The notes beneath the pieces were generated by a model that searched no databases, had not been told where the DNA came from, and saw nothing but the letters and a program-made list of their open reading frames with translations. Positions 9,461 through 54,018 of a stretch of DNA of 64,000 bases are shown here, in pieces. The stretch comes from Atractiella rhizophila (lineage: Eukaryota). Each line of letters opens with the position of its first letter. Position 1 is the stretch's first letter. Where the stretch lies: positions 1 to 64,000 of the forward strand of contig MU271309.1 of NCBI GenBank assembly GCA_021432655.1, read 5' to 3'. The translations under genes and the position numbers were made by a program.

Positions 9461-9464
9461 TTCG

Positions 9465-12842: not shown

Positions 12843-13149
12843 AGCTGAGCGGTCTATTGACTGTCAAATTTGAAAACTGAAGAAACGCAATGGAGAAGTG
12901 AGAAGACCGTACGAGCAACCATACACATCATGCACAGTTCAAGCAAAACTGCAATAACAATGCACAAGAATAAAGCAAAACACAATAACGGGCGTGCGAA
13001 GAGGAGAATTGGATGATAAGATCAATCAACAGACCAAGCAAGTAACTGTATATAGAGTGGGACTGAGGAAATGGCAGTGATTGAAATAGTATAAACATTA
13101 CAATATTAATTTGCATAGCTACTATATGGATTACTTAAGGCAAAATGTG

Positions 13150-14591
13150 CGAGCAGCACTAGCAGTACCATCGTTGCAAAGATGAGGCTGTGACACTGTC
13201 ACAGTCTATCCAAGGCTACCTAGATTTGTGCTCCCATTGCCGTTGTTCTCCCAGCAAGGGGACGTGAGACATCTGGCACATAGGCAAAGATGTCAGAGTT
13301 TGTTGAATCCTGAGCGCGAGCAGGAAGTGACTGGATGATTTCAGGGGTGACCGGGTCATCCTCTGATGCATAGGTTGTAAGATCATTCGCAAGTATATCC
13401 GCAAGATAGCTGTTGAGTAGTCAGATTGGTACGAGGACTCAAAGAATCAAACTGACGTATTGACGGCTCCTGCTTCCTCCCCAGCTCTCAATCGAGCCAA
13501 CTCCTTCTTGTGGGCATCAAAAGCCTTGAACCATCCCTTTGTCCACTTATCAGGTTCTCCGATAGGCTTTTCATCGGACACTGCTGCATGTCGCTGCCTT
13601 CCATAATTAGAGAACTGCCTGAGCGAAATGGACAGAAGAGGGACGAACCAACAAGGCAAGATTTGCAAAATGTTCATATGATGCTGGAATATCATACTTA
13701 TCTCCTAGGTTAAAGGCTAGCGCCTTCAGTGACAATTTCTCTTGAATCGATGTGTAAAGCTTCTCGATCATATTAGAGCTGTGATATATGCAGAAGGAAA
13801 ACATACCTTTGCTTTGGTTGAACCTCTTAAAGTATTGAAACGATCACACACGACTCCCTTGAACTCCTCAAAAACAGAAGTGTTGAGAGCAACAAGGGCA
13901 CCAGCAGCTTTCCCTAACTGAGTTGGATTTCTGCAAAAGTAGTTCTACAATTTGGTTACAACAATCCAACATTGAAAGATAATCGAACTTGCCATTATAA
14001 TTTGGAACAGGTCTCTGTTCGACGAATAGACCGCAATGAGTGGGCAGAACCACACCAGTGCAACTGTACGCTTAATGGTTTTTTGTGGAGAAGATTGATG
14101 CTTTCAAGGTCACAAAAACGTAGAATAGAGCTGATACAGACCTTGGCCTCAGCATCTATCACCACAGATTGCAGAATGACGCTTCGTAACAACTACTCGT
14201 GATTTTGAGTTGAAGTCAAGGTGGCCAAGCTTTGGGCGGCGAGATGACCTTCGTATGTGGTGTGAAATCTTTTTTGTGCTCGATGTGTATCCGCATCATC
14301 CTCAGTATCTTCTTCTATCTTGCATTGTCACAGCCACGAAACAAAGTATGTGTAGCAACTCACTGTTCCATGAAACATAGCCAACAATCTTGTCTTTGCC
14401 AAGTTATCCAGTCGATATTCCGTCGCAATAGCATCTAAATCAACAGGCAATACAATTGGCTGACCTGCTGTTGTGGTTGCATTGCCATTCACGGAAAAGT
14501 GAGATTGTCGATTCGACGGGGTTGGAATGATCCCAAAGCGAGTGAGAACTGAAGAGGTTGTGGGAGTGGCTAGAGTCCCTGCTCTTGACAT
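13150..14591 (-). CDS. Multi-exon hypothetical protein, probable accessory gene of the Plavaka-like element
   Basis: A chain of co-oriented exon-sized ORFs (14328-14591, 13995-14192, 13607-13804, 13447-13695) separated by GT-AG introns, lying just upstream of the transposase. The 3' end is uncertain. Confidence 0.45.
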
Positions 14592-16300
14592 GATGGCTGC
14601 CGCCTCCGACTGATTAAAAGGCGGTTGGAATGATCTATAAAATACAGCAAGAAAACAGTAGAACTTGAAGTAGTGCCTGCAGCCACCAGACCACTCAGCT
14701 GATTTATATAATGATAACGGAGAAGACATCATGACAAGCCGTCAAAGATGTGTAATATAAGCACTTTCTTGCAGTAAGTTGCATCACTGAGAAGGTTGAT
14801 GGCACCGATCCAGAACGCCTTCGAAGATGCAGCCACTTCCAGTAACAGGTCTTGGATGGATGGATGTAGATGACCAATCCTGAGCTTTGACTAAGGCTCT
14901 TAGAAAGATGAAGATGATAGACAGATATCATGCAGTACAGGGTAGTAAACAACAGAACCAGGTCACCTTTATTGCAGAGAACTCATAACGAACGTGAAAT
15001 CCCGCAGACTGTGCACAAGCGGAGCAGTCATCTCTCCAAAGATGTTCATCAGTTTCGCAGGGCCAATATGCATCTGTCATGGCATGCACGCAATCGTTCA
15101 TTATATCTCGGACAAGCTGCAGAGAGTGGGTTTATTCCTGAGCTGGGCAGACAGTGAAGGTACATCGCAGTCTGGGCCTCCCTATTTTCAAATGGATCAA
15201 ACTCTGCATTTGACTGTGCAGGGCACAGCTCATTTCAGATAATTTTCCAACGGCAGTGTATGCAAACAACAGTGTAAATTACTCATGCATGATATACCTC
15301 GGCAAAGGCAGCAGTGCTGGAGTATGTACCTTTTCTGTACGGTATACAATGGTTGCAGCACCCAAAGCTGCACAGAAGGGTGCGAACAGATAGAAACAAG
15401 CCAAATGCCGTGCGCCGTGCCACCACCGGCTGCCAAGAATAGCCCAGACGTTTTGAAACCCAGGGCGGCCAGGGGTGGCGACACAGAGAGTCAACTGTAA
15501 TGCGGTGGAAGCGGAAGGCAGAGGCTTCGCGCCCTGTCAAAAGCCGTTTGGTCACTTTTGGCCAACTTTGGTCGTTTTCGGTCACTAACCAAAAAGGTGG
15601 CCAATCGTGACCAATGTGGCCAAAAAATGTACACTTTGGCAAATCTTCTGGTCACTTTCAGAAAGCAGAAACCTACAAATCCCCTCGTTTGGCCACTTTC
15701 AGTCACTCCTTAGTCGCTTTCTAGCTTTCCTCAAACGTACATTCCTCAGCCAATATTAGTCAAAATTAGTTGCGATTAGCCAAGTCTTGTATTTACACGA
15801 TTAATCCAAATCAATGCATAGATTATAAAAAGAGAGATCCGTAAAATGTAGGCACGAACATATGTAGAAAGCGAGACCGTGAGTGGTGCCTGCTTTGGAA
15901 TCCGTATCAGCGAGAGTGGAAGTACTGATAAGTCCTTACTGTCAATTCTAAGCAAGAGCTGGCGGGTAAGGGAAGACAATGTCCAGAGGTACTTGCTCCA
16001 GCCCTTTACCAACGTTGCGCCAGAACTGCAGTGCATAAATACGTATGATGGTCAGTGTCATGTTCTGTTTCGAGCGCAGGCGAAAATCGACTTGCCTGCT
16101 GCCTCCGGTCTCCTAGCAAAGAGTACTCTGCTCTGATAGCTCTGTGGGCCTCTTTCGCGGTCTTTCCAGGGCACGTAGCTGCCCACGAAGCATGATGAGC
16201 ATTCTCGTAAGCTAATCTGATCCTGCCATCAGCTACTGCACTGTAAAAGCTATACTGAAAAAGGCTTACTTTCCACTAATCTCCCTCGTGCTCCTCGAGA

Positions 16301-18840
16301 CTATTCACTGCCATTAGATCCATTTGAGGATGAATGTGAACACACACCGCTGCCTCCAGAAACATCTTCACCGCCATCCACTGCTCTCTTCCCTCTTTCA
16401 CGTTCCCCACGTCCTCCCGTTCCAAGTCCAGAACCTGCACCATTCGTCGTATCTACACCTCCGCCACCGCCTCCACTCGCAATCGCACCCACACTTCTGC
16501 CGCCACTTCCAATTTTGCTCACACCCACACTTCTACCACACATCGCGGTCGCACCGGTGGGTTTCTGGACTCTCGGAATCGCGACAGAAGGGAGGGTAGG
16601 AGGTGGGATCGATCCGGGAGGTAGATTGAGCAATTGGGTTAAGGAGCTGAGGCTGGCAGGAGGTGGTTGCTCGCTGGTTGGGATTTGAGTGGAATGTTCT
16701 ATCTTACATGGAGAGCAGCTAATTTGACGAGATGACAGACAGACCTGCAGTTGAAATATATCCGACTTGTCTGCTCTGCAGAGCAGCATCAGACACACTG
16801 AGTGGAGAACCGGAAGGAATATCAGGCTGGAGACGAGAGCTGGGCCATGCAGTTTTCTGAGAAGCGTGAGTGTGTGACGCTATAAGCAAATATCAGTCAA
16901 GGCAAAAGAAGTGCGAAAAGACAACCTTCTGTTTCAAAAGTTGGATGTCCTATGATTGGCCTGGGATGCTGAGCGCTGGTTGAAGCGTGAACAGCGGGGG
17001 CAAGGTGAGAATTAGGACGGCGGGTAGGTCGGAGAACGCACCGTTAGCGAGGAGGAGGAGGGACGATGCACCTGCACCGTAAGTAAGATCAGCGCAAACG
17101 GACAACAACAGAGCGCGCACCTGCCAATGGATCTGCTGCAGCGGGAGGGATGTAACTACCTGCATCAAACCCTGTGCCAGTAGAAACATCGTCCACAAGA
17201 TCCTTAATAGGTTCCTGAACACCGTCGTCACCACTTCCCGCCCGATTGGTCAATCCCCCTGGCACAAGTTCAGCCGCCTCCATTGTCATAGTAATCGCAG
17301 TACACTCAGTTCCAGGAGGAATGAATGTGGATGGAGAAGTGACAGATTGGGAGTCACACGTTTGAGAGCGGAGGGGAGGTTCGGTGAAGGTATACGGTTG
17401 GAGAGGAGGCTGAGGCTGCTGATTCGTGTAATCTGGGGAGGGGACGTTTGTCTCGACATTGAGATTCTCAGCTCTACATAACCAATCAGCTGTGTTCTCT
17501 CTCAAATGAAGACCTCACACGTTTATAGAGGGACTATCTTCGGCAGTAGTCGCTTTCTTTTTCTTCCTCAAATAAATATCATCATCTCCTGATTCCTTGC
17601 GCTTTTTACTTGTCTTCCTCTCTTTGGAATTCACTTCCAGGGGACGTCCGGTATTCTTCAAGATGGGCTGGGAATCCTTCAGTTCAGTCTTGATCTGCGC
17701 TTTCTTCTCCGTAAGTACAATACTCCGTTTCCTAGTATAGCTTGCAGTATTGAGAAAATAGAGAGCTTTGAAATAACCATCACAATAGCCGAGGAGAGGG
17801 AAACGTTCGATGAAGGCGTGTAAGAGTTGATTGGTATACGTGGAGTCTATTTGGCTGTAGTTCTTTCCAAGAAACCGCTGATCGTTCGCTTTCGCACCGA
17901 AGCACTCTTTCCAGGCTGTACCGATCCATTCCCTGATCTGCTCAGTTTGGATAGGTGAGATTGGTTGGCCGTCTTCACCCTGAATGAAGTCCTGTGTCGT
18001 TCCTTTCCGCTCATCTTTTCCGAGCTTCTTGTAAGCGTCATTCCAAGCCTTGAATTCCGCACTTGTCCAGCAGGTTATCATGGGGAAATCGACTCGGTTG
18101 AATCTTGGAATCGCGGTAGCATCAGAACTGCGTCGGTATGGTTCCGGGAGACTAAATGACGATCTGGAGGATTCATGAGGATGAGGCAGTGGCTGAGCTG
18201 GAGGTGGTGTGCGATTGTAATCTTTAAAGCTGTCATATAGCGATCTAACATGCCCATTGCATATGCATCATAATGTGTACTAATAAGTGCGGATGGGAGA
18301 ACGGACCTGAGAACCCTAATCTCGGTCTGCAGAGCTATATTCTCATCATGTGCTCGTCGATACACAGGACTGAAAGCGAGAAGATCAGTTGTCGTGACAC
18401 TGGCCAAGATTTGCCGAAGATTTGGGGGCTCTGAAAGGGCTAGATTATGGTGAGGCGATATCGGCGAGCCTAGGCGTGAACGACCTCGACCCTCTATAGT
18501 GTTGAGGTTGAGATGACGATTCCAGAGTTGAGAAGGATGGGATGGTTCTGGTGAATCCCTGGATGGGGTAGATAGTCGAGAGGTTGGGGTACATGATGAG
18601 ATGTTGCTTGAACGAGTGAGAAAGTGAAAGTTTGGTGACAGAACACCTAAATCAATGCCTTTAATACCCATTTCACAGCGAAACAAGAACAAGAAAGAAC
18701 GGACCGGCTGCAAAATCAACACTACTTTCGCGCTCACTGAAAGAAGCTTCTATCCCATTGCTATTTCCAAGTGCAAAATCCAAATCCTCCTGTGAATGCT
18801 CGCTTTCCTGATCATCTGATGAATAATCTTCAGAAACCAT
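16301..18840 (-). CDS. Accessory (ORF2) protein of the EnSpm-like element, multi-exon
   Basis: Long exon ORFs (18078-18737, 17515-18081, 17089-17505, 16301-16798) lie inside the TIRs, divergent from the transposase. The segment FIQGEDGQPIS..IR..W..FPLLGYC resembles basidiomycete transposon-associated hypothetical proteins. Confidence 0.55.
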
Positions 18841-18979
18841 TACACCTTCAGTTTGAAAAAGAGAAATGTGATGTTTAAAGAGGTTATTGTTTACGTGGAA
18901 TATACTTAACTGAGAAGTTAGTTGGACGTATTTGGTTATATTGTCGGTAACAGATCAGAAACAGAGATAGAGGATCATT

Positions 18980-21900
18980 ATGATGGAGAGTAGACCAATG
19001 CATCCTTCTAAGAACTATCGATGGTGTACTTGTAATAGATGCAGGAAGGAGTCCCACAGTGGGAAATGGGTGCATCGTCATACGTTTCGAAAACATCAGG
19101 TCGATCAGCAAGATAAAGGGCCTATGATGGAGACTTCATTAGATGATGATATGAACTACAATCAGGATGATACAGAAGATTCTGATAGTAATGGAGAAAG
19201 TCATGTCAGCATTATTTTCTATATTTGGGCATTTATGTAAACGGGAACGTATATAGTCAGATGGCCCGAACCAGATGGAGATTGATGATGCCAGCGTCGG
19301 GCGTCCTGCTTCCCCTAGAAATGACCAACCTCGGTCCTATATAACAGATACTCCTCAGCCAAGTTCTGCCGATGAATACTCCAGCAGCACAAGTTCCTCT
19401 TCCACTGAGGAAGAAGAAGAAGAACTTGCCAGTTCTGAGGTAGATCCTAATCTCTTGACTAGTACGCCACTTTGAAACAGTCTGAATATAACCTAAACAT
19501 ATGTGATAGCACATCATCTTGAAGACTTCTTGTCAAGTGATCATCACTATCGAGAAATGCTCAAGGAACTCACGGAGAAGGATGTAACGTTCAGCATGAT
19601 CCCAGACTCTGAGAAGTACCACTATACACCGCTATCCGAAGACGAGCTCTTCTCTGTCGAGCTTTTCATGGCCTGTAATGGTCGAGCCTCTGATGAACTG
19701 TATAAGGATCTACGCAATATCATCTCAGCAAGCTCAAACCGAACTGTTCTCTCCCTCTTTTGTGTCAAGCGATTAATTGAAAAGAAGAGTCAACTGATTC
19801 CTCAAGGTTTTGATATGTGTCCTGCTCTCTCCTGTGTAGCTTTCACCGGTCCACGAAAGGAAAAGACATACTGTCCAAAATGTGAAGCTGCTCGCTATGA
19901 TATCTTCAAGTGTCGGGGAAGAGAAGCAAAGAGATCCAAACAAAGGTACTTTATTGTCCCCTTTGAAGTAGCGATTCAAGCACGTTGGTCAACACCACAA
20001 GGAGCCTCAGCATCCAAACATCGTGCCAGGTGTACAAAGGAGCTTCTGCAACAATGCCCTCAAACTGGCAATCTGCCCAGACGGTTTGATGATGTTTATT
20101 GTGGCTCAGACTATCTCCGGGCAGCTCGTGATAACATCATTCGCCCTTCAGATTCAATGGTGTTTCTCTCAGTCGATGGAGCCCAATTATTCACCAACAA
20201 GAAACCGTCTGATGCAGTCTTTGTCATCATGATCGACTATAATCTTCCTCCTCATCTTCGCTATCTTCAGCAGTTTTCATACCTCTCTGCATAGTACCAG
20301 GTCTAAATAAACCATGGGATCTCAATTCATATCTCTATCCCATATTCGAACAGCTCAAACAACTGTCACAGACTGGATTTCCAATATTTGATGCTCAAAT
20401 AAAGACATGGTTTCGATCACGACCTTTCCTGGGTCTAGGCCGTTTTGATACCATATGTGCAACTGAGCTGGCTGGCGAAGTAGGGCATAATGGACGACGG
20501 GGTTGTCACATTCAGGGATGTGCAGCTGTAGGAGTGCACAAACCTGGCGCTTCAACTTATTACTGCCCTCTTCATCGTCCTGATGACTATCGTGAATCTG
20601 AAGCTCTACGGCCCAACTAGGATCCTCGGAACCTGCCAAGAGAATCTCCATCACAGTATCGAAAGCACATTAACGATATCATGTCCGCTGCTGCCACTGG
20701 AAATCAAACTCGAGCGAAAGAGTTATCAACCGAATACGGCATTGTCCGTGATTCTCTCTTCTCTGAGCTTGTTACTCTAGGTGGAGGTGTTCCTTATTGC
20801 TTTGTTGTGGATGGGATGCATCATCCAAACCTCAACTTTCCTCAGCTCATCATCGGCTTATGGCGTGCTACAGTCCGGCCGGATTGGCAGGCTGCAAGTC
20901 ATAAGAAGGGGAAACGAAAACGTGGTGATGATGGTAATCCACTACCTGAAGGTATGGCCGCCCATGATTTTCTCCCCTGGCAAGTTCTTTGGGGCAGGAT
21001 TTGGGAGGAACATGGAACACGTGTTGAGGCAACACGGATATATCTTCCAGCTTCATGGGATAAATATCTTCGAAACATTGATATCAAGTTTTCTGCCTAT
21101 AAAGCAAAAGAATGGGAGACTTACTTCCATGGAGTTGCACCTGGACTGTTGGAAGGAGTTGTACCAGAGCCATACTACACAAATTATCTCAAGATTGTCT
21201 CTGCAATCCGGATTCTTCGAAAGCGTGATATCTCCTCTGTGGAGCTCGATCTAGCTGAGAAACATATCATTGAATATGTTGAAGAATTTGAGCAGCTTTA
21301 TTACCAGAATGATATTGAACAGGTTCACTTTTGCCGTCCCTCTCTTCATAAGATGCTTCACCATGCTCAACAAGCTCGCCGCCTCGGACCTTTTATCTAT
21401 ATCACTCAGTGGACCCTGGAACGAACAATAGGTATTCTTGCTTCTCGTATCAAGCAACCTTCGAAGCCCTATGAAAATCTCTCACAACAGTCAATACGGC
21501 AGGCCCAATGTCAAGCCCTCCGCACAATTGATCCATCTCTTCTGCACAACGAGCGAGTCAACAACTTACCACGCGGAGGACTCCCTCTTCCAGGGGACAA
21601 GGCTCTCCTACCTGCCAGAGAGTGGTGCAAGATAGACGGCAATGAGAAAAAAGCAATTCAGCAATATCTAATGAAGAATGGATATGACGCTGCGGAGTGG
21701 GACTGCTATGTTCACAAATGGGCACGACTGCAACTCCCGAATGGTGAAAGTGTACGCACATTATGGAAAGAATCACAACGTCAACCCAATTCAGTCCGTG
21801 TCAGTCGTCAGATCAAGTATCAAGGAGCTATTGTCAATAGTCACGATAAGACTAACTATACACAATATGGTGAGGTTCAGTACTTTCTAGAACTGACTGT

Positions 21901-22120
21901 AACAGAGAGAAAATTGTTTCTGGCTCTCATTCATCATCACCAAGGCATCCAACTTCATGACAGATATGGTATTGTAATATCTTGCCAGCCAGGTAACAGT
22001 GATACACAAGAGTTGGTGGAAGTGGAGGATATAGATGAAGTGGTGGCTATTATTCCAAGGCACTGGATGATCGATTGGTTCATAGTTGAGAGGCTGGGAT
22101 TGATAGTGAATAGTGATTAG
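18980..22120 (+). pseudogene. EnSpm/CACTA Tnp2-like (Transposase_21/DUF4218-type) transposase
   Basis: N-terminal CTCNRC..H..H, DMCP..C..CPKC, LSVDGAQL..YNLPPHLRY, VDGMHH, HKMLH and QWTLERTIG. There is one frameshift at ~20280 and an in-frame TAG at ~20618, where the paralog has TAC. Confidence 0.9.
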
Positions 22121-22869
22121 GGGAAATGAAACTACTTTGCAAATTCTACTTCATTCGTAAAACAAGTAGATCACTGGATTCTCCCTTTACAACTGCTTCA
22201 GGTAACTGTCACCTGATTCCATTTCCACCTCTTTGTTTGCCTTTCAATCCTATCAATCTTGTAACCTTTGACATATATGAGGTGCATATCTTTTATTTTA
22301 TTTTATTGTTTGCTTCAGAGACAGACACATTGCATTCATAGACACTGGATCAGCCTAAATTGTATTCAAGATGAATCGTTAATCATTCCTACATTTTGCA
22401 TTCAAGAATATTCGAGTTCGAGAGGTTGACCACTTTTGTGAGGCGGCGCAAATCTCCTCGGAATTGATTGAGCGCAAAACCCTCGGGGCGACCAACGTTC
22501 CTGAGCCGAGAGAACGCGGACCGAGAGGTGGAGCGGCGAAAAATGCCCAAAAATGCCCAATTCCGACTAGCAAGTGACAGAAGTGCCAAAAAGTGACCAA
22601 TCCATTTTTGACAGGGCTTCGTGCTTCTGCATCTAAAAACCAAGTGTTCTCTCCTTGATTCTTCCCTCCATTGCCTCTTCAACTGAGCTTCGACAGCGTC
22701 AATTCCAGCTCACACCACCTCTCCTCTAACCCACAGCCCTCCACTTTGCAATCACAAACGACTCCAGTCATTCCAGGAGCAGCAAATTCCTGCCCAATCC
22801 TTCACAACAACACGTCAGCTTACCTTGCCTTTCTACGCGACAAGAACGTGCTGAGTCTTGCAGAGTAAT

Positions 22870-24294
22870 ATGGCACCTTCGCACAAAGTAAATCTTTACA
22901 TTCTTGATGATAAAAAGGGGTGGGGAGTGTGACTTTTTTTGCAAAAGGCTTTACATCCTTTTGCAGTCAAACACATACTTTCGCTACCATGTTAGTTGTT
23001 TGATGGACTGGAACTCCTCCATCAAACAACTAATAACTGTAGACAAGATGCTATCGCTGGAACTCCCTTTAGCTTCTTGGACTTACAGGTTTGGCTCCGA
23101 AAGAGGCTGTTGACCGCAAAAGGTTTCTGCCTACCCTATTCTATTTCTTTTTTGCTTCTGTCCTGATACTAATAACAATGGATCTAGCCGAAATTTCCTG
23201 AATATGAAGATCCAACCAAAGCTCAATGGCTGGAACATGGAGCCAGCGACAGCTTCTGGGAGGAATGACTTCGCAAAGCAATCAATGCTTTGCCAACAAC
23301 AGAGTGGGAGTTGAACAAAGGAAATGCAAGATATGTCCGTAACTGGAATAAGCTTATAATTTTCAAATTCGCACTATTATCATTCCTTTCACTCTTCAGC
23401 AACTTTGTAATTCGTCTTTAAAAACATTGAAGAAAATTAGACAAAATAAAACCATCATTTAGAATTTGTTGAAACAGATGTAAAGTTTGTCAGTAGTGAT
23501 GGACATATATTGCTTATTTTCTTGAAAGATAAACTCCATATTCCCTTTGGTCCTCAATTTGCAAATAAAGCTTTTGTAGATGCCTCCAATGCAGTTTCCG
23601 AGTTTCTTTCATTGACAACTGTTACTCCTCCAAAAAGTTCAGATTCTCGATGGGATCAAAAGGAAGTTGAGCATATGAAAGAGAAGGATCAACCAGTCGG
23701 AGCAATATTCACAGGCTTGTGGAATGCTCTTGCTCATCCAAGTGATGAGGTGCTGGTTTCTGCTGACACCAGAAAATCCGCAATTAAGTAAGTGATCCTC
23801 ATTCTTTTCTACGTCCTACGTCCTAATCAAGTTGCAGCCTCAATTATGTGCACTGGCTCTATCAAAATCTCACGCCATTCATTCAAATCATTGAATCCTC
23901 GTTCCAAGTTACAGCACCTGCCACTTACTCTCATTATCACGAACTTGCCCAGCTCGCCTCAAAACTCTATCCAATGGGTTCAACCTTCTTCCCTTCCCGC
24001 CGCTCCTCCCGACTCTCCCTCGGTATCATTGCCAATGCGTCTATTCAACCTCATTGTGATGCAAGTAATAGAATGGAGGGGTTTGACTGGATGAGTGTGT
24101 TTGGAGAATTCAGAGATGGTTATTTATTTGCAGAGGTTGGAGGGAATTCTTATAAGTTCAACTACAAACCACGCGACATTGTTGGGTTGAAGGGAGGAGT
24201 TATTGTGCACTGGGTCAGCAAATTTGAAGGAGAACGAAGTGGCCTGGTGTGGTTCTCTCATAAAGACACTCAAGCGAGGATTCAAAAAGAGTAG
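22870..24294 (+). CDS. TET/JBP-family 2-oxoglutarate/Fe(II) dioxygenase (putative 5mC/T oxidase)
   Basis: C-terminal double-stranded beta-helix signature PHCDASN (HxD)..SVFGEFRDGYL..YKPRDIVGLKGGVIVHWV (H)..GERSGLVWFSH (R, aromatic). The upstream exon (GAIFTGLWNALAH) splices in frame through a GT-AG intron at ~23789-23836. The 5' exons are tentative and include a TGA at ~23266. Confidence 0.8.
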
Positions 24295-24559
24295 GCACAC
24301 TTTCTGAGCTCTACTTTGCTTAAGTCTCTAACACCGTGACAAGGTATCAAGAGAGGAAAGTTGAATTTGAGGCACATCATGATATGAATGGGATCGGTAG
24401 ATAGTATTAACCTCTTTTGAATTATCAAAGAAGTTGAACAATCCTAAGTCTGATTTGCTGTTTAGGATATAGCTATTTAATTATTCATTGCATTTTCATT
24501 CAGTCTTCTATCCTTGGAAACAGTGCGAAGGGAAAGTCCATGAAAATGTTATCAAAATC

Positions 24560-26247
24560 AGCCACAATAGGCGACTAGAAATCTTGAGCATGAGTATTTA
24601 TGATGAAATGAAGGCAAAATACGTACTGGTGGCTCAGGCGTGCCCCTGGTAGAAACTTGCTTTCTCGCAAGACCATGCACCATGTGGACAATATCAAGCA
24701 TCGGTTCGGTAGAATAGTGGGGGTGAGACTGAACCTTGATGTGATGTGAAGCCATGTCTTATAAATTCAATCAAACAACGTACCAAAGGTTCAGGTGGCC
24801 TTGTAGAACTATCGGACTGTTGACTGACACGACTATTGAAGACAGTTGAAGTGAAGTAAAAAAACTGCAGTACAGATAAGCTTGATTGTGCAAGCATATA
24901 TAAAGACTGACCTTGTTATGCAACAGCGCCTCCAATCTGATTCTTTCTCAACCCATATCAGAAGTAATGGTCGGTCATGTATTTCCTGAGTTAAACTTGA
25001 CCATGCCAAAGTTAGCATACCCTGTACTGTTTCAAAATCTGGAACAGGCAGAGTCGCCTCCGAAAGTGGAACAATTTGCTGCTGAATAGCTGTCCATTGG
25101 TTCCAGAGTCTTGTGGCACAGTCTAAATCATCCTTGAGTTGTCTCTTCAGATCTGCATTTGCCTTTTTAGTTGTGTTTCGATATTGGGAGTTAATATTTC
25201 TCTTTATTTTTTGCAGTGATTCGACAACCGTCGTGACGTTCTGATGAATCAAAGATGGGAAGTGAGATCTAGATCGATTCTTTGTCTTCTGACAGAATGT
25301 TTGCCGAATTCGTTGCTGTCGTTGATCAGTATTTACTGCTCTAGACATAAAAGAGTTCTGAGACAGTGCGTGAATTGAGATTGACTGTGCCTCAGCCAAC
25401 TGTAGATTTGCAGCATCTCGAAAATCTATACTCCTCCGTCTAACGGTCTGATCACTGACAAGTCACCACTTTGAATCAAATCACATACTCGATGATGGCC
25501 TGCGGCAGTGGTAATCCTACCCCAACCCGAGCATATTGATAGGCATGAGCTTCTTCAACTAAATTTGATGAATGTGCAACTTGATCCCAGATATTCCGAG
25601 GAATAGGAGATAAAGCTGGAACTGAAGATGTCCAGAACCAGCCAATTGAATCCTTATTTGTCAACCAATCTGCAAATATACTCTATTTGTAAGCTTGACA
25701 AAGTGAAGCAGAATAAATCAAACCTTTTAGCACGGTGTTGTCAGCTGCTAGCTCTTGCGCAACCACATACCACAAACGAAAATCTAATTTGGAGAAGCAA
25801 TTCATGAACTGTTTCATAAATTGTCCTATAGTCTTTGCCTTGATGGGAGCAGCGCTGATCAGATCCTCATACACAAGATATTGACGTCGCTTCAAATCGG
25901 GCTGATGAGAATCATTGTAAAGAACGTTTCGCTTGAATAGTAGGATCTGTAGCGAGTGGAGAAACCATAGATTGGAGATTCCTAAATGGATATCAGAATA
26001 TGGCTATACTGGTAGATAGAGAAGTCTTACCGGTAAACATGAGTCTCACATGTTAAGGATGTATGAGAGATTGTATCTGCTGTAGAAGGTGGCCAAGATG
26101 GAGTCAGCTTCCAGCCCGGTAGGCGTTCAGTGGGATACCGATCAAGGATAAGCTGTCGAAAGTAATCCCCCAGCATCCCATTTGCTTGGCCCTGATGTAA
26201 ATCGCAGATGATGATAGGGCCGTTCTGGAATTTGTTGAAGTAGAGAG
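24560..26247 (-). pseudogene. Mutator(MULE)-like DDE transposase, 3' part
   Basis: IIICDLHQGQANG (second D), a degenerate ..FKRNV at the CxxH position, and W..IPRNIWDQVAHSSNLVEEAH (E). It continues the gene split by the hAT insertion. Confidence 0.65.
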
Positions 26248-26515
26248 TAGGCTTGGTACACGGGGAACCCGTGGCCCCGTGGGTTTTTCCGGGAGGTTTT
26301 GGCGCTCTGATGCCATCCCGTACCCGCCCTCGAACCCTCAAGGGTTTCCCCGTCGTTGCAGGGGCATTCCCGCAGGATTGCTGGGAGGGGACGCGAGCCA
26401 AAGGGTTCACGCGACACTGACGGGATTGGAGGGGCGATATCAATATTATTATCCATGTACTCTACTAACCTCTCTGCACAGTTCAATAATCATTAATCAT
26501 TCACCTATCAATCGA

Positions 26516-29500
26516 TCAATCAATCACCATGCTTCCCTCCCCGCGCTCCGCCTCCGCCGCCGCCTTCTTCCTTGCCGCCTCTGCTCCCTTCCTCTTCTTC
26601 CTGTCATTCTGTTTCACAGCTCCAAATAACTCCTTCATAGGAGGCATGAATCCATCCTGCTCCCAGAGCTTGACCATCATGGCCGAACGAAAGACGGGGT
26701 CCGACAATTGATGACGCAAGTAAGAAACCGTCAGACGACCCCCTGAAAAGGCACGCTCAACATCCACCGAAGTTGCTAGCACCTTCAATCAATGAAAAAA
26801 ACAGAGATGAATGAAGCTGCATACCTGGGACTGCCATAATATCCATGGCCATCTCGTGGAACTTCACACGGAAATGCTCCTTTGCGCGCTTCGCCTCTCG
26901 CCATTGCTGATAGTGGTACTTGAGGCCATCCAATTCTGTTGTCCCAGAATCATCCTGCAGGGTCTTGATAGGCAACGGGACACCTTTGATAAACTCTACA
27001 AGGTAGTCGGCAGTGGAGGTATCGTCTGCATCGTCAATCATTGCGTCGAGTTCGTACAATGTCCGAGCCTTCTTTCGTAGGCGTGGCACAGAGGTGGACG
27101 CCTGTGAGCAACAAATTAGGACTTAATTGTGGGAAGGAAAGTATAGAGGTTCCGGGTTGGACGCACAGAATTACCCGTTTCTGCTTTGTAATGCTGCTGC
27201 TGAAACTCCTGTAAGCTATCCATGGCTTCCATGATCCAAGCCTCTTCCCAATCCAATTTTTTCAAGTATGCAGCCCGGCGGTTGGGATGAAGCACTTGAG
27301 TATCTGTCAGTTTCAATGCTGAAATGTTTGAGTAGTGAAAACCTGCAAAGAGCCCATAGATAGATCTTCGAATCTTCAACTACTTTCAGAAAATATTTTG
27401 TCCAAAACTGCCTGTGCAGTTGCAGCGCCCGCTTGGACAGCAGCGTGCTTGTCAGGGAAGTGGATTTCACCATCAAGCTCGTAAGTTTCATAGAGGCGAG
27501 AGAGATGGACACCGATATTATTGAAGAGGGGGATGACACTGGCTAAATTGGANNNNNNNNNNNNNNNNNNNNNNNNNNNNNNNNNNNNNNNNNNNNNNNN
27601 NNNNNNNNNNNNNNNNNNNNNNNNNNNNNNNNNNNNNNNNNNNNNNNNNNNNNNNNNNNNNNNNNNNNNNNNNNNNNNNNNNCTCAAGTTTTAAGCTCGG
27701 TTTACCACAAAGATTTCGCAATGCGTCCTTCAAGTCTATTGCTCGATCAATCATCGCACCTTCGCCATTCCAACGTGTGGGACAGGCTTTGACAAGGTGC
27801 ACAGGAGGAGATAGAAACTTAAGAGGTCCTTCAGGATCCTCTTTTTGGAGAGCGGCAACCTCGTCGTCAAGTTTGCTTCTAAGCCCATCGTTCAAGGCTG
27901 TCCTTTTGGCCAGATTCACAAGCTATTTTGTTGATTAAAGGACGGTGAAGGGTGAAAGACAATACATGTAGCGTACCTTCGTGAGCATGAAACGTGCCTC
28001 TAATTCTTCCTTCGGAGAACAAGTTGCTTTTGGAGCAGCCTTTTCCCGAATTAGATCAATTGCAGCCGCTTGTGCTTGCACTTCTTCACTTTGGTCTATA
28101 GCAGAAGCGTTAGATTGTTAGACCAATTTGCTAAACCATACCTTCTAGTTCTGCTTCTTCAGTGAACCCCGACTCCCTCAGTTCTGCTTCCAATTGTGAT
28201 AATGCCACTTCATCCGCAGTGATGGAAGTCCCAATGCCTGCTATGACTCGTTTCTTCGTAACTGGCTTCTTGAAACGACTCAAAAATCCCTGGACATTGC
28301 CTCATCTAATCAGTCTCCCATCACATTTTACTGCCAGAACCGTACCTTTGCAACCAAGTTGAGTATGTGGTCAAAGCATCGCACTCGCAAATCTGCTCTC
28401 CAGAGAAGCATCTTCGGATACTTGACCCTTTTTTCCATTGCCATTGTGAATGTATCGTTGTTAGACGCACTGTCGCATGTTGGAGCCATGACCTGCGCAG
28501 AATGTCAACTCTCGAAGAAAGACTCCATGAGCAGACTTGAACACGCACCCTCTCGCACACTTCATATGAATCCAATAAGCCATAGACCAAAGCAGCAATG
28601 TTATCTCCCGTATGTGAATCAAGAACCCTGTTCCTAAATTAAATGGGTTCTCACAATGAAGGACTTTGTACCGAATGAAACCAAGAGCAACTTTCTTTGC
28701 ATCTCCCCGCTCGTGGAAGTGAAGGTAGACAAGGACATAACTGAAGCCCTGAGGAGCTGTCCAGCCGTCCAGCGTAATGAAAAAGTTCCCAGGAGCAGCC
28801 TTTGACAGTTATTAGTATTGTATATAGGATTCAAACTCGGCACGTACCGAAATTCTGGCCTTCACCTTAGCGCGCACGTACTCCTGCAAGAATTTCGCAT
28901 CCTCTACTACTCTGTGACGATCAATGTTTGGAACACTCTCTGATCCACTGTTCCCAGGCTTGAGGATCTCTCGGAAATAATGATCGTGTGTGACATTGAA
29001 TGGACGAGCTGAAGTGGTGCACCAGAGAGCGGCAAGGACACGTCGGTACGTGTCGCGGTCCGTCTGGTCTATCACATTGACTCATAGCTGATTCTCGCTG
29101 ACCACAAGTTTTGTTTGCTGGCTCTTTGAAGATCCTTCGTCGCCCTGTAGACAGTCTTTTTAGATCCTTATCTAAAGCTCACAAAAGACCAACCTCGACG
29201 CATTTGTCGGCGCTAACTTGCAAGCCTTTGGTGCTTCCGTCATCGCGAGCACGTTCATACGTGTGGTTCAGGTTGGTCTTGCAGACAAACGTGTAGAAAA
29301 TGCGAAGTTCTCCTGACTTTCTACCAGATCGCGTGTCCTTCAGATAGGTACCGCGACGAAGAATTGGGCGTTCGTGATAATGAAGATATACGCTCGGTTT
29401 GTCGCTATTCTTTTGAACTTTGGACCTTCCCCAGCGTTGAATATCGAAGTCTATTGTAATATCAGAAAAAGATTTGGATGGAGTCTCGGAAGAAGACCAA

Positions 29501-29730
29501 CCAATGATCTCATCATCCTTCCAACCGTCAAAGCTGCTGTCCATCTTGAAGTCCACCCCTCGTGGTAGTTCCCGAGCGTGCTTTCGAGGGGACCTGCGAA
29601 TGGCATCCCCAACATCATCATCTGATGAATCAAGCTCGATGGTAGCAATATTTTGAGGGTCAGGGGTTTGGCAGGGGCTCTGATGACTGGTGTCGGAATT
29701 CATCGAATCTTTCCGAGTGCGCTTGGACAT
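26516..29730 (-). CDS. hAT transposase, multi-intron, with an apparent frameshift at ~27400 and an assembly gap
   Basis: ARPFN, TLDGWT, CDSASNNDTF, CFDHILNL, CPTRWNGEG, VLHP, and the dimerisation motif ATSVDVERAFSGG. Confidence 0.9.
27553..27682. other. Assembly gap (130 N)
   Basis: Run of N. Confidence 1.
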
Positions 29731-30522
29731 GATGGAATACCAGACAAGAAATGAGTGCAAGTGATTGCCAGGAAATCAGTCCTGTTTTATAACTTTTCGC
29801 CTCTGGGTACGGCCGATAGAGGCAATCCTCTACCAATTGCAAGGTCAACAGAGCACACGGATGCGGTATGTCATCCCCAATGGACTCGTCCGAAGCAGGC
29901 ACTGACAATTTTTGTGTTCCAGCAGCCAGACAGAAGCTGCCGATAGCCATCAACAGCACATCCATTTGCTGGGAATTTGAATGTTTCATTTATTTCTTTG
30001 TGCTGCTCTCATCGCAGGGACTCAAACCCATCTGCACAGTTCATTCAAGGAGGAGCACATTCGGTACACTCACCGTCAGAGAACTTCTTTGGAATCACAT
30101 AATTTTGCCAATATTCTCATCCGGGTTCTTTCAGAAGCAGATTGTACTCTAAGCTTTTCATAGCTCTTTCTCCTATGCCCGCGCAGAATCGAGTGGAAGG
30201 CATCCAATTCTCTCTCCCGCTCACCCATGACATAAAAAAGGAAGGAATGACGGACTGTTCGAGGACTGTTTAAAATCTCGGGCTCTACTTTCAAGTTAAG
30301 ACGGGAGTGAAGCATAAGATCAAGCGTGAAACTTGTGCACAGTTGCTCGAGAAACCGTGCAAACCAACGGGTAGCCACGAGTTTCGAATTCGTAAATGTG
30401 TTTCCCGTCCCCTTCCCTTCCCCAGCAAGGATTTTCCCGCCGCTCCCGTGGGATCCCCTTAAGGGGAAGGGGATGGGAGGGTCACAGGTTTTGACGGAAT
30501 CCAAAACCGTGTACCAAGCCTA

Positions 30523-33136
30523 GTAGAGAGCCAAGGGATCTTCTTCTTTGTGACAGCTTCGATGCTCCGAAAAATGAGGTTGCAACCCTTTGATATCCTT
30601 AACCCAAAACATGCCCTAGAGTGTGACCTAATGGAATTCCTTATGAAAACCATATGGGCATAGAAAGATAACTAACGGGATGCATGATACATTCCTGCCA
30701 CTTCCCATTCTCTTAGATTTGTACTCCGTTCCACGCCTTTGAAGGTAACATCGATAGCCAGGAGTTCAACATGAAGAAGTGTTTCTGCTTGGAATGATGT
30801 AAAGCAGACACAATAACGGAAACCGTCAACAGGGTCTTGTTGAACATCTCGGATAAATAATCTTCTGGGATCTTTCTGAAGTTGTTCCTCTTTCCACATG
30901 TGACGGATCTCTACATCCATGCCAAGGACTAAGTGGTTTGAGAAGACTAAGAAGAGTGCACTGACCTTCCATCCAATCATCCGATGTTCGAGAAGGACCT
31001 CGAGGTATGGTCAATGGTTGAATCAAATGTTTCCCCCTTTGTACCATTTTCCTGAGTTTGTTCAGATTAATAAGAGCCGGAGCCACGGCTGCAATTGAAC
31101 CAGTTCCGAGAGAGTTATTGATTATTCGGCCTGTAAAGTAGTTAGTCCATAACAATCTGTTATGTAATGACATCGACATACTATTTAATAACTTTCCACC
31201 TGAAAGCCGCTCCTCGCTTTGAAGAACCAATTCCATGCATCGAAGAATGAAGTCTGTTTGTTCTGTTCCAGTTTTCATCGGCGGTGAGGGTGGGTGATTG
31301 TGCGCTCCAATGGGAAGAATAAAGTAGAGGCCACTTGACAACCATTCTTCATCAATCTTGTGACCCTGTGCCCAACAATGGATAACCGCAGAACAGTGGC
31401 TATTATCTTGAGATCGATGTTGTTGGGGATAATGAACACGGGAATCAGGGAGAAGCTCCAGCAGTAATAGACCCGCTCAATTACATATTATCCTTTGGTA
31501 GTGGATTTTACGTACAACAATCCTGGGCAGTAGAATTAGTAGGCATCCAATAAGGACAAGTACCTGGCCGGTACATCCAATGTGAATGATCAAAGCTGGG
31601 AGGCATCTGTTCATAAAGAAGCAGATGCTCAATGGTCTCTAAGTGACATCGGCGCGGAAGTGTTATCCTGAGGTGATTCTGATTGCTTTTTCGAACTGCT
31701 ACATCATAAACGGCTGTGCTTATCCAGATTGGAAGTTGTGAAGCTGGTTTGATTGCAGAACATCGGATTTCATGTTCATGGCCAAATCTATCAACACCCT
31801 GGAAGAATATATGATATTATCTTCAGGTTTGATGACTGAGGAATAAACTCACACTCTCAAGTTTTGCCATGATCAACTTCTCGTTGCATGTAGGACAGAT
31901 CTTCTTATATTTCTTAAGCAACACGGCACCATACCAACTATTCGGCTCATCAGGCACAACAAGGGATATAATCAGACAACATACTTAGCCGTCTGCTCTT
32001 CTACACTCCAGTCAAGAATTGTACGGCCAAAATAATCTTCACAGAGTTGAAAGAGAGAATGTGTATCATTGAGATTCGGAAAGTAAGAGGTGTACTCCTT
32101 AAGAAGTGCCCAATCAAAAAGAGAGCAGGGTTTCCCGAAGCCATGCGAGCTACACAGAAGGGGATATCGGCGCCATAATGGAGCCGTATTGTGTAGAGAA
32201 GTTGTAGAAACATCTTGATCGTCAAGGTAGGGATGAGATATTAAATCGGACTCTTTGAGAGAACCAGATAAGCCTTTGTGTACACCCTGAAGCTATTTCG
32301 AGGTCATAACGCCTTCAGTGTGCAGTAGCATGGTCAAAGAAGAACCTAAACATACCTCAGCTGCAGGCTCAGCTGCTTTACCATTAATATCATTCAATCC
32401 TCTCAAGTCGATCCGGAAACCAACTGATCCATCCTCTGTACTTGGCAAGTAGCCAGGCCACTTTGGTTTTAACTACCAAATTGACATTTCGCATTGTCCC
32501 CTGCCTAACAAACTTATTTCCTAGATACCGGGTGTCCCCTGTTGCTTGAAAAGAGCTCCAGTCAGCTCCTTTTCCCATAAGGTACCCATCGAAGCCTGAG
32601 TAGACAGAATAGTCGGTTTGAAGGGCGGCGCGAGGATCTTGAGATGAAATGTGAGGAGGCAGGTGGTCGGGAATCTTGCGTGTAGCCAGTGATTGAGCCT
32701 GACCAACAAGATCTAGTCCATTGAAGATAAAGGAAATGGGTTGATTTTTGGAGCTAGATAGAGCAGAGGAGGTCAAGGAGGTCCGAGGACGTTGAATGCT
32801 TCGAGGGTTGCATTGTCGGAGAGGGGAGATGTGCTCCAGCCCACGCTCTCCTGTAATAGGAAGAGGAGGAGTTTGAGGGCGGGTTGAGGTTGCTGAGGAT
32901 GGTGATCTATTAAAAAGCCCATTACTTATAAGACAGCATGTCATACCTGACATTGATGCATCACAAAGACCTTCCACTACACTGTCAACCTCCATTGAGT
33001 CTCTGAGACCTTTTATCAACCCATCAGTATCATTAAACCGACAATAGGGCCACATTACCCTCTCTGAATTGTCTAAACCATTCAGCATCAAAGCCTTCCA
33101 TGTCGCAGCTTCATTCCTCCTTGCTCCTGGAATCAA
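30523..33136 (-). pseudogene. Mutator(MULE)-like DDE transposase, 5' part
   Basis: GAHNHPP (WRKY-like Zn-domain end) and LLAIDVTFKGV..LREWEVAG (first D). IFRSIEAVTKKKIPWL runs into the hAT TSD. Many introns; the start is uncertain. Confidence 0.65.
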
Positions 33137-33337
33137 GGAGAGCAGATACCGTGGTTGGGGACTATTGCCTTCCGAACTTTGGTATTGAATAGAGAATAGA
33201 TGATGCTGAGTTTGTCTTTGGTTTGCGCCTGAGCTTATTCAGAGCGCAGAAAGACACGGTTCCTCTTTCAAAGCCGGAGCAGCTTTGAGTGAAGTGCATT
33301 TTGAAATAAAAGTATGATATTTCATTAAACTACCAAT

Positions 33338-34439
33338 CTACGTCAGCATACTCCCACTCTTTTGCACTCTGCCCTCAAGTACTGTCATAATCTTATCCAA
33401 CTTCATCTCCAAAACATTCAATCGGTCCTTTATCGTTGGACCATCATCCCTCTTCCTCTTTTTCTCCACTAATGGCGACAAGATACCGGATGAGGAGGAG
33501 GAGCTGGAGGGTAATGATGAGGCAGAAGTTAAGGGCTTGGGGTAAGGTGTGTAGCGATGTGACAAAGGCATCAGTTCCTTCTTAATCTTCAATCCAAAGT
33601 CCGGCATTGGAGCATCTGCGAGGCTATGAGCTTCATGGATGATTGGTGGAGTAGAAGGAATAAGTGTACCTTCTGTTGGCCAAGAGAGAGAGATATGCGA
33701 TAAAGGATGCGAGCTGGGATGGTGCTGGCGCTTGCCTGCAGGTGTTTGAACAACACAGTCCCAAATAAGAGATGGACTTACTCCACAGGTCTTGCAAATG
33801 ATGGCTAAGGCGATGAGGTCAGAGACGAGCTGTGATGCGTTTGAACTTGTGGACATATTGTCCATGGCTGTCATTGAAGCCGCGACAACCCACAAACTGT
33901 GTATTGTTGTAAATGGGGCTTCGTCGACTTGGTTTCCCCTGTGGCAACCTCTTACCCCAATGACGTGCACATAAAGTATCACTCACTGGTCCAAACAGCT
34001 TTACCACCAGCTCTCCATCACAACCGCTGTACCCGCATTCCTCCTCCACACACGTACGAGCGAAAGACCGTTCTTCCTCTTCCTTCTCATAGTTGGTATC
34101 TAGATCATAAACAATCTTTGGTTTAATATCAACATTGTTGAGTCCGGGACTTGATGTAGGCTGGACTTGAGAAGATGGGAGACGGTGAGCAGAACTTGGG
34201 GAAGGGGTTGTAAGAGAAGTGTCGTCCTCAGTCTGTGAAAGAGGGAGAGATGCAAGCCAGACTTGCAAGATCTTTTCCCTCTCCTCCATCGGAAGGGATT
34301 TGAGAATCTGAAAATTCAAAGATTAGAAGTGACTGCTGTAAGCAAGGAATGAAATAAAACAGACCTTGAGCAGCTCAGAATCTTTAACGGATCCTTTCGC
34401 TTCCGTTTCCAGCCATTCATCTGTCAACCAGTGCGCCAT
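33338..34439 (-). CDS. Hypothetical Cys/His-rich protein (third ORF of the putative element, or detached 5' exons)
   Basis: ATG at 34439, intron at ~34313-34364, then overlapping ORFs 33819-34319 and 33338-33982. Motifs: C..GCDG, FVGCRGF..H, CKTC, a basic KKRKR segment and a coiled-coil end. Confidence 0.5.
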
Positions 34440-35025
34440 TGTCTGTGCGGTTTGTTCATAAGGGTTGGAAAGGGAGTAGATGAGGGAAAAGGGCGCAGAA
34501 AGGAAAGAGGGTGTGCATTTGTATCAAAACTTGACCTGGGGACCTTGCTGGTTCTTTACAGATATTGTCATCAATAGGAATTGAAATCTGTAGGAAAAAG
34601 GCAAACTGCGGCTGCGTGTTGCCGTCAGCGTCGCCGAATCTTTCGGAAGTAGCTTGATCTCCATGCCATTGCTTGCCGTACTCATGTATACCTTACAGAA
34701 AAGTAACGTACTGGCAGTGCTGCTGGAGCTCCACCTACGGGCTAGTCGCCGAGGGGTTAAATAACAATCACACCACCATGCCAACAGAACAACGGATTGT
34801 AAATGTTTGCTTGGCTGTTAAATTGAAATTGCTAAGCTTTCTGATTCAATGTTTGCGTCACGGGTTCCATCAGGTGCTGAAATACAATTATAACAAGCAC
34901 AAGCACTGAGCACAAGTTTGAAGAAGAATAATTATAGTGTGATTGACGCCTGAGGAGCAAAGAAATTAGAAACTGTTCAAAATGTAAATTGTAACGTTGA
35001 GCTAGATCAGAGCTATCATACAGAT

Positions 35026-36784: not shown

Positions 36785-37344
36785 TGTTTTTAAATTCAGC
36801 TGTATGCGAGGCTGACGCCGCCAATGGTTGCCGTAAGCAGAGGCCGGCCCGTATCTATCCGGTCTGCGCTTTTCTTGAAGACTGCCCCAAAGGGAATAGT
36901 AATCAACAGTAATTACCTACATCGCTTTGAAGGTATACAGTAAGGGTAGAGACGTATCGAGGAAAGGAAAAGGAGAGACCCGTCGCCCCGGGGGGTCGGA
37001 GACCGTCGGGGTTAAAACTGGTCTACCAATTTTGTGCTCAAATCTTCGCCAAACCTGGAGCAAAACCCCTTTGAGCTGGCGCTGAGGCCGCTTTCGCATA
37101 ACCCTAGGGGCGACCAGTTTGCCGTTTTTCTGCTGCTTTTTCCATCACACAGGGATTCTCCATTTCCAGGTCTCACAGCGAATCGCCTGGACTCCAAACT
37201 CAATTTGCAGTGTACACTACATCCAAGAAGAGTCGGCGAGCTTGTGATAACTTATCCGGAATTACCTCCATCTTTGTGTTCTATCTTTAAAACGCCTCTT
37301 CTCCCCTACACTAAAGTCCTTAATCACATGAAGAAGTCGACATA

Positions 37345-53778: not shown

Positions 53779-54018
53779 GAGAGCTTATGGCAAATAGAAA
53801 CTTACAGAATGTTCATGAAGAAAGTATTACTAACATTTCACACATCTCCAACAAATGGTGTCTAGCATTGTAGGCGATTGGTCAAGTGGTGTTAAGGAGT
53901 GGTAGGGGCCACCGAGGAAGAGGTTTGAAGATGTTGTCAATGCTTACACATCCACTGGAATTAGAATTAACAAATACCAGAATCAGGGAATGTAAAGACT
54001 TGCCATTGCCATGCCTCA

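Follow-up and report, generated by a model that had tools for sequence, protein, structure and literature searches.

The stretch of DNA analyzed here (hereafter the window) comprises 64,000 nt of the genome of Atractiella rhizophila (positions 1 to 64,000 of contig MU271309.1), in which an imperfect inverted repeat of 41 nt brackets a TET/JBP dioxygenase gene and a long transposase-like gene. The left arm (15308-15348) and the right arm (34685-34725) of the repeat, which are candidate terminal inverted repeats (TIRs), were located by local alignment. Between them, the dioxygenase gene on the plus strand and the long gene on the minus strand are convergent, ending at 24294 and 24836, respectively, and two further transposons, one CMC-type and one hAT-like, are nested in the interval. 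Once both nested insertions were removed in silico, a unit of 8,043 bp remained. An earlier reading of the sequence (hereafter the original prediction) had described a unit of about 8 kb, bounded by this inverted repeat and composed of a dioxygenase gene, a DDE transposase gene facing it, and a separate Cys/His open reading frame (ORF), with insertions at 15531-22622 and 26248-30530. The repeat, the size of the unit, the identity of the dioxygenase, and both insertions were borne out by the results below; the layout also stood, except that the Cys/His ORF is not a gene of its own. Logan contigs of four public runs were aligned to positions 15000-34950 of the window. X1 and X2 are DNA runs from one sample, X3 is an RNA run from a root metatranscriptome, and X5 is labelled "DNA?" but its contigs are intron-less.

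The TET/JBP gene (23450-24294, plus strand) was identified by Pfam and Protein Data Bank (PDB) matches. Two exons were recognizable, 23450-23787 and 23838-24291, with a 50-nt GT..AG intron between them. Because neither exon contains a start codon, there should be at least one upstream exon, which was left undefined. The ORF covering the second exon (23827-24291) matched Pfam Tet_JBP (PF12851) with an E-value of 2.7e-5 over profile positions 33-164 of 164. Its score of 23.9 bits was below the gathering score of 34.9, as expected for a partial domain; the 155-aa exon was scanned alone, and the whole protein may pass the threshold. The first exon had no Pfam match. All four PDB matches at E ≤ 10 were TET enzymes, namely CcTET (7vpn and 8jkk, E 5e-5) and Naegleria Tet (5cg8 and 4lt5, E 4e-4 to 7e-4). 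The HxD motif was found at 24052-24060, the distal His within 24199-24216, and GER at 24229-24237. HCD, VIVHWV, and GER of the ORF aligned with HRD, LVLHGV, and GER of CcTET, with the iron triad and the 2-oxoglutarate-binding Arg in register. At the position of CcTET Asp337, as numbered in section 3.4 of Kojima (2025; PMC12730594), the ORF also has Asp, and at that of Gly331 it has Asn. Judged by its sequence, the dioxygenase is a TET/JBP enzyme with the predicted Fe(II)/2-oxoglutarate residues in place. When the ORF was compared with longer proteins, none of 264 candidates was related, which is weak evidence; lengths of 85-271 aa were not covered. RNA-contig cover was not seen over the gene, which proves nothing, and the AlphaFold2 model of the exon, computed without an alignment, was unusable (pLDDT 39.3).

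The long gene, estimated at ~1,200 codons, lies on the minus strand in two parts. The 5′ part (30675-34583), delimited by exon mapping and spliced contigs, corresponds to a National Center for Biotechnology Information (NCBI) gene model of 773 aa (P0001; ATG at 34439), which mapped exon by exon on 34439-30675 with several exons 97-100% identical. It contains a Cys cluster (34037-34020) and a finger made up of C-x2-C (31897-31886) and HNH (31305-31288). A candidate first catalytic Asp is present in IDVTFK (30755-30738), directly after which P0001 stops. The 3′ part (24836-26247) was recognized by its reading frames and motifs. It contains a candidate second Asp in IIICD (26215-26201) and a C(2)H motif, CETH (26050-26039); farther 3′, it contains FRLW, an in-frame TAG (25685-25683), a W followed by the SSNLVEEAHAYQY helix (25565-25545), and a C-terminal ORF of 209 codons (25462-24836). 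The Cys/His ORF (33819-34322), which the original prediction had listed as a separate gene, is instead the first large coding exon of P0001. Spliced contigs of X3 and X5, from which the introns at 34308-34364 and ~33938-33985 are missing, connect this exon to downstream ones. Since the contigs of both runs lack introns, transcription and splicing of the 5′ part of the long gene are documented by at least two studies. The occurrence of such contigs in the root metatranscriptome and in X5 also means that the gene family is expressed outside the sequenced culture. The spliced minus-strand contigs spanning 34583-32791 were 98-100% identical to the window in X3 and ~95-98% identical in X5.

The outer repeat gave a score of 41 in the local alignment of 14800-15530 with the reverse complement of 34330-35100. 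The same procedure gave a mean of 20.9 and a maximum of 30 in 300 shuffles, and a mean of 21.9 and a maximum of 30 in 269 pairs of real sequence. A score of 41 was thus reached in none of the shuffles and none of the real-sequence pairs, and the repeat is above chance. Its 19-nt core had two matches in the window, both at the arms, even when three mismatches were allowed (0.02 expected). The outer tips of the arms read CAGCAG..CTGCTG. Relative to the long gene, the right arm is situated upstream, ~100 nt away from the outermost RNA-contig cover (34583) and 246 nt from the predicted ATG. Farther out (12900-15307 versus 34726-37600), inverted or direct repeats were absent; the scores obtained there were 25, the same as the mean of the shuffles. 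We also considered the arms as the tips of two outward-facing TGT..ACA elements, and rejected this because the core has no further copy in the window at up to three mismatches. A scan of metagenomes with the repeat core gave 13 loci, none alike beyond 21 nt; two of the 13 were aligned by blastn, over the pattern itself only, and tblastx found nothing.

The first nested element (15532-22616, plus strand) is 7,085 bp long, sits 184 nt inside the left repeat arm, and is not part of the unit. It is of the CMC type, with termini CCCTGTCAAAA and a 7-bp target site duplication (TSD), CTTCGCG (15525-15531) and CTTCGTG (22617-22623), matching at six of seven positions. Its ORFs showed a weak Pfam match to Transposase_21 (E 0.0016 at 20243-20620), and a paralogous ORF in the window (53971-54633) showed a stronger one (E 9.5e-10; 38.5 bits vs. 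a gathering score of 28.6). Transposase_21 marks the CMC superfamily according to a passage of a fungal survey (PMC5751038). Contigs of X1 and X2 join 15522/3 directly to 22615/6, with 7,092 nt skipped and 6-7 letters ambiguous at the joint. Since the element is missing from this site in these contigs, it looks recent or polymorphic. Its CCCTG..CAGGG termini are accompanied by a TSD of 7 bp, and the CMCT clade is given 2-5 bp in section 3.1.6 of Kojima (2025; PMC12730594). The target site was nearly palindromic (GCAGAGG-CTTCGYG-CTTCTGC), and the paralog in the window extends over ~53971-55800.

The second nested element (26248-30522, minus strand) is hAT-like and splits the long gene. It has perfect 16-nt TIRs, TAGGCTTGGTACACGG, beginning with TAGGC, and a perfect 8-bp TSD, GTAGAGAG, at 26240-26247 and 30523-30530. 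Contigs of X1 and X2 join 26241 to 30527 and skip 4,285 nt, the shorter side of the joint measuring 242 nt in X1. Pfam gave no hAT match for the ORFs of this element. The label hAT-like refers to its termini, its TSD length, and a C-terminal ..ERAFS.. motif, which we take to be a mark of hAT transposases. Paralogous coding pieces at ~6140-7353 and 58075-60990 bring the number of copies in the window to three. As the copy at 26248 is absent from the X1 and X2 contigs, which form a clean joint, the hAT-like family was recently active. An assembly gap of 130 N (27553-27682) lies within the element, and X1 and X2 contigs, which enter it from both sides with loose ends, might serve to close it. Because contigs join the flanks of each nested element, forms of the locus without either insertion exist; these contigs are ~1-1.5% different from the window, and therefore derive from another haplotype, another strain, or a very young copy. 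Forms of this locus lacking the insertions, and no other copies, were what the aligned contigs showed.

The hAT-like element is located between the candidate first and second Asp of the long gene. When it was excised in silico, a frame remained open across the site into PIIICDLHQGQ...LTCETHVYR. Compared with the window, the uninterrupted form in X1 and X2 carries an additional base behind 30569 and, over 30527-30752 as a whole, 16 additional letters; in the window copy, the frame changes directly after CETHVYRNL. Because of these extra letters and this frame change, the window copy is a pseudogene. It is dead, carrying the hAT-like insertion, the in-frame TAG, and at least two frame breaks. 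Contig depth within the unit was ~300-530 in X1 and 970-2,010 in X2, with 280 and 625 in the last bin; these values were not taken as copy number, since contig depth is not a copy-number measure. One further contig joint, from 24110 to 33891, was found in X2 only with 29 nt on its shorter side, and was discarded as unreliable.

From its 5′ to its 3′ end, the long gene contains IDVTFK, IIICD, CETH, and W..SSNLVEEAH in this order, the motifs having been assigned by eye. The first Asp follows a hydrophobic strand, the second follows IIIC, C(2)H is followed by RNL, and SN..E..H comes after W. D-x-T-F-K, fingers ending in HNH, and SN..E..[NH] helices are features that we take to be typical of Mutator-like enzymes. 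According to a passage of PMC5499845, Mutator-like element (MULE) and hAT transposases have two marks in common, a (C/D)(2)H motif that follows the second D by 15-45 aa and a W preceding the E. All peptide motifs quoted in the original prediction were present on the minus strand. Its label "Mutator-like" was not supported by the searches: the motifs D..D..C(2)H..W..E were read by eye, Pfam MULE, FAR1, and FLYWCH gave nothing even at E ≤ 10, and the only independent hints are the two lists of atlas look-alikes given below. HNHP, which the original prediction had listed in its Mutator-like D-D-E layout, is more probably the HxH part of a C-x2-C...H-x-H zinc finger than a catalytic motif. The Kyakuja/Dileera/Zisupton (KDZ) motifs, as given by the original prediction (DGNF, YDIxC, and DGExxER), had no match in the six frames of 14000-36000, as had been claimed, and the long gene had no Pfam match to KDZ or Transposase_21. 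The frames inspected showed no C(2)C / H(3-4)H pair in the stretch from the second Asp to the Glu. None of the tests that were run placed the long gene in KDZ, Plavaka, or CMC, and the placement of the candidate transposase outside KDZ and Plavaka was upheld.

Look-alikes of two pieces of the long gene were retrieved from an atlas by embedding. Residues 520-773 of P0001 drew three unnamed clusters at 0.78-0.79, followed by named ones at 0.75-0.76, which were FLYWCH (74% of members), FLYWCH with MULE (42 and 12%), and ZSWIM1-3 RNaseH-like with MULE (98 and 73%). The piece containing the second Asp (72 aa, 26030-26245) drew DDE_Tnp_ISL3 fragments at 0.77-0.78, and all 10 of its best named matches belonged to one clan. 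Taken from the motif layout and these two sub-threshold embedding leads, the reading of the long gene as a DDE transposase is plausible but unproven.

In our interpretation, the 8,043 bp would be what is left of a cut-and-paste DNA transposon, low in copy number, of A. rhizophila or a very close relative. The long gene may encode a highly divergent DDE transposase of the MULE/hAT type, with (C/D)(2)H and a W before the catalytic Glu, and the C-x2-C...H-x-H finger upstream would correspond to the WRKY/FLYWCH/FAR1 fingers of Mutator-like elements, which it appears to resemble. The terminal repeats would be bound by the transposase, which would mobilize the unit, and the TET enzyme would oxidize 5-methylcytosine (5mC) on the element and thereby work against silencing by methylation, a role that has been put forward for other fungal transposons with TET genes. 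Supporting this, the two convergent genes take up nearly all of the interval between the arms of the significant repeat, and the long gene is multi-copy within one species at differing divergence, with relatives at 89% (P0002) and 34% (P0003) identity. We give about an even chance to the locus being a TET-carrying DNA transposon, decayed and low in copy number, whose DDE transposase is very divergent and probably related to Mutator. A more specific version is offered with less confidence, as a tentative proposal: that the transposon belongs to a DDE lineage seen only in Atractiella, either a deep Mutator branch or an ISL3-like lineage new to eukaryotes, which independently captured a CcTET-like TET/JBP gene keeping Asp at the Asp337 position.

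Ownership of the TET gene is the point at which the locus could be read differently. The gene lies 834 nt downstream of the CMC-type element and shares its strand with the transposase ORFs of that element, and TET-carrying EnSpm and Plavaka families are described in the consulted part of Kojima (2025; PMC12730594), so that it might be cargo of that element. This idea is close to refuted, because the X1 and X2 joints skip exactly 7,092 nt, which equals the element plus its TSD, and leave the TET gene outside. In addition, the contigs join the flanks exactly at the TIR and TSD, the bounds at 15532-22616 are themselves set by TIRs and TSD, and no TET homolog accompanying the paralog at 53971-55800 was present anywhere in the window. 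The Helitron in the window lies 14 kb from the TET gene. With the CMC-type element countered as owner, two readings are left, a repeat-bounded unit or mere neighborhood. Under the latter, the two genes would be neighbors in a transposon-rich island, with the TET gene standing alone or stranded, the long gene separate and possibly transposase-derived, and the repeat unrelated to mobility. We consider this main rival less likely, though several findings speak for it. The repeat is short and 80% matched, and its inner half is better conserved (18/19) than its tips. No TSD was found at the repeat when direct repeats of 2-11 bp were sought on a 31 × 55 grid of end positions (≥7 bp with ≤1 mismatch, or perfect 5-6 bp); there were 0 candidates, and 200 random grids averaged 3.2 in the 7-11-bp class. 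No other copy with both genes was seen in the protein searches, and the window is dense in unrelated transposons. Against chance proximity stand the score of the repeat, far above both null distributions, its uniqueness in the window, and the tight bracketing of both genes; moreover, fungal TET genes are repeatedly found inside DNA transposons, as reported in the portion of Kojima (2025; PMC12730594) used here.

The remaining findings that weigh against the proposed transposon concern the long gene itself. In Pfam scans, 10 ORFs of the gene had no relevant match, and the same held for P0001-P0003 together with two 3′ pieces at E ≤ 1 and for a set of six queries at E ≤ 10; the MULE and IS256 domains (PF10551 and PF00872) were unmatched in a core that is split by introns and the hAT-like insertion and was scanned in pieces. 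A phmmer search of three transposase pieces against PDB gave 0, 0, and 3 matches, the latter irrelevant (E 0.58-1.2). An exhaustive phmmer search with P0001, i.e., the 5′ 773 residues of the gene, against 1,835,955,588 representatives returned two proteins, both A. rhizophila gene models: P0002, of 453 aa on another contig, and P0003, of 197 aa and related in the N-terminus only. A word-based search of P0001 against proteins of similar length agreed, with 2/8,000 candidates related, and a 216-aa ORF compared with longer proteins had one relative among 1,666 candidates, the locus's own model. In metagenomes, 88 stretches matched patterns of P0001 and none was confirmed. The C(2)H motif lies 51 residues past the proposed second Asp, compared with the quoted 15-45 for MULE and hAT. 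Atlas scores below 0.9 count as leads and not as evidence, according to the statistics supplied with the tool. It could therefore be argued that the long gene is no transposase but a lineage-specific Atractiella family, in which the D..D..E order is pareidolia: neither profile nor sequence searches matched it to a transposase, its relatives come from one species, and the AlphaFold2 model without alignment (pLDDT 34.9, unusable) and the Atlas model were of low confidence. We regard this as improbable, since ordered DDE motifs of the MULE/hAT type, as outlined in part of PMC5499845, are present, two independent pieces each draw look-alikes of the DDE/RNase H clan, copies at 89 and 34% identity occur in a single genome, and an inverted repeat encloses the gene. 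Alternatively, the unit could be a TET-carrying transposon whose transposase falls outside Mutator, belonging to another (C/D)(2)H-type or bacterial-IS-like DDE lineage, for example an ISL3-like lineage undescribed in eukaryotes, or a divergent relative of hAT. The exclusive attraction of the second-Asp piece to DDE_Tnp_ISL3, the unmatched Pfam MULE profile, and the failure to find a TSD of 8-11 bp point in this direction. The N-side piece, however, draws FLYWCH, MULE, and ZSWIM clusters, all atlas scores concerned are <0.9, and D-x-T-F-K, the C-x2-C...HNH finger, and the SN..E..H helix would fit Mutator-like enzymes; a non-Mutator transposase seems quite improbable to us. A TET-carrying transposon with a probably Mutator-related transposase remains our preferred reading of the locus.

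The window as a whole is transposon-rich eukaryotic DNA. With the nested ones counted, the transposons unrelated to the unit are DDE_1, a Helitron, three copies of the hAT-like element, and two of the CMC type. Pfam identified a DDE_1 (pogo/Tc1-type) transposase fragment at 2342-2836 (plus strand) and Helitron remnants at 7498-9483 (minus strand), the latter as adjacent ORFs for a PIF1-like helicase (E 9e-29) and Helitron_like_N (E 5e-26). The second Transposase_21 copy (53971-54633) was likewise found by Pfam. A second hAT family, unrelated to the nested hAT-like element, is represented by an ORF with a hAT dimerization domain at 40660-41172 (minus strand), and pieces related to this ORF occur at ~43989-44261 and 62971-63117. 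Host-type genes are interspersed among the transposons, namely a tubulin gene of several exons at 37659-39081 and a protein kinase domain at 49102-49887, both on the plus strand and identified by Pfam. Self-BLAST also revealed a direct repeat of 30 nt, 97% identical, at 40417-40446 and 40482-40511, with the copies 65 nt apart.

TET-carrying DNA transposons of fungi were reportedly described by Iyer et al. (2014; PNAS 111:1676). More recently, TET/JBP genes were reported within Dileera, hAT7, IS3EU, PHISTA/Harbinger, EnSpm, ESTA, and Helitron elements in Pucciniomycetes, and within Kyakuja, Zisupton, and Plavaka elsewhere, which gives ten carrier lineages in the consulted sections of Kojima (2025; PMC12730594). 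According to the same sections, the TET gene has often been transferred between superfamilies. The premise of the original prediction, that fungal TET genes are classically tied to KDZ and Plavaka transposases, is outdated in light of these ten lineages (PMC12730594, in the same part). Neither "Atractiella" nor "Mutator" is mentioned in the main text and one supplement of that work, and "MuDR" occurs twice, both times in a single passage of the introduction that deals with other cargo genes, and is missing from that supplement; its other supplements may list relevant families (PMC12730594). Full-text searches found no article pairing TET/JBP with MULE or Mutator-like among the matches listed, and none joining "Atractiella rhizophila" with "transposable elements". 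As the pairing of TET with a Mutator-like transposase is absent from Kojima (2025) and from these matches, it is unreported as far as the searches reach. If the proposed transposon is real, it would be an eleventh carrier lineage and would add a second class of Pucciniomycotina for TET-carrying transposons. Its confirmation would place a Mutator-like (or undescribed) carrier and the Atractiellomycetes among the fungal DNA transposons with their own 5mC oxidase, and would strengthen the view that TET capture recurs as a means of countering silencing and is available to cut-and-paste lineages of any kind. The gain would be incremental, given that the principle and ten carrier lineages are already published (Kojima, 2025; PMC12730594, in the sections consulted). 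The transposase-like family is also of interest in itself, as its 5′ 773 residues had no relative beyond one species.

Compared with known systems, the closest solved relatives of the dioxygenase are CcTET of Coprinopsis cinerea (7vpn and 8jkk) and the Naegleria Tet-like dioxygenase (4lt5 and 5cg8), with which HxD, the distal His, and GER align, although overall similarity is low (E 5e-5 to 7e-4 over ~80-110 residues). KDZ and CMC/Plavaka elements are the basidiomycete DNA transposons classically found with TET/JBP, and a CMC-type element is nested in the unit. Unlike KDZ and CMC transposases, the long gene has no KDZ or Transposase_21 match and lacks DGNF, YDIxC, and DGExxER. The CMCT clade is marked by C(2)C and H(3-4)H in the segment that separates the second D from the E, a 2-5-bp TSD, and CA..TG termini (PMC12730594, section 3.1.6). 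The CAGCAG..CTGCTG termini of the unit recall CMC/EnSpm/Plavaka elements, yet no TSD accompanies them, and Transposase_21 is located in the nested element, not in the unit. Mutator-like elements differ from the unit in that MULE, FAR1, FLYWCH, and SWIM were unmatched in Pfam here, an 8-11-bp TSD was not found, C(2)H stands at 51 instead of 15-45 residues, and the N-terminal region of ~540 residues has no known domain. They may share with it the ordered D..D..C(2)H..W..E motifs, as assigned by eye, and a C-x2-C...H-x-H candidate finger upstream of the core, and the 41-nt repeat falls within their TIR range of 14-500 bp, as does the extra ORF within their habit of carrying cargo, according to passages of PMC6446971 and PMC5499845. 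None of the ten carriers in the consulted sections of Kojima (2025; PMC12730594) is MuDR/Mutator, and the unit considered here is a single decayed copy with neither a TSD nor a family reconstruction. In common with the TET-carrying transposons of fungi, the locus combines a TET/JBP gene and a transposase-like gene side by side between candidate terminal repeats in a Pucciniomycotina genome, an arrangement for which escape from 5mC silencing has been proposed.

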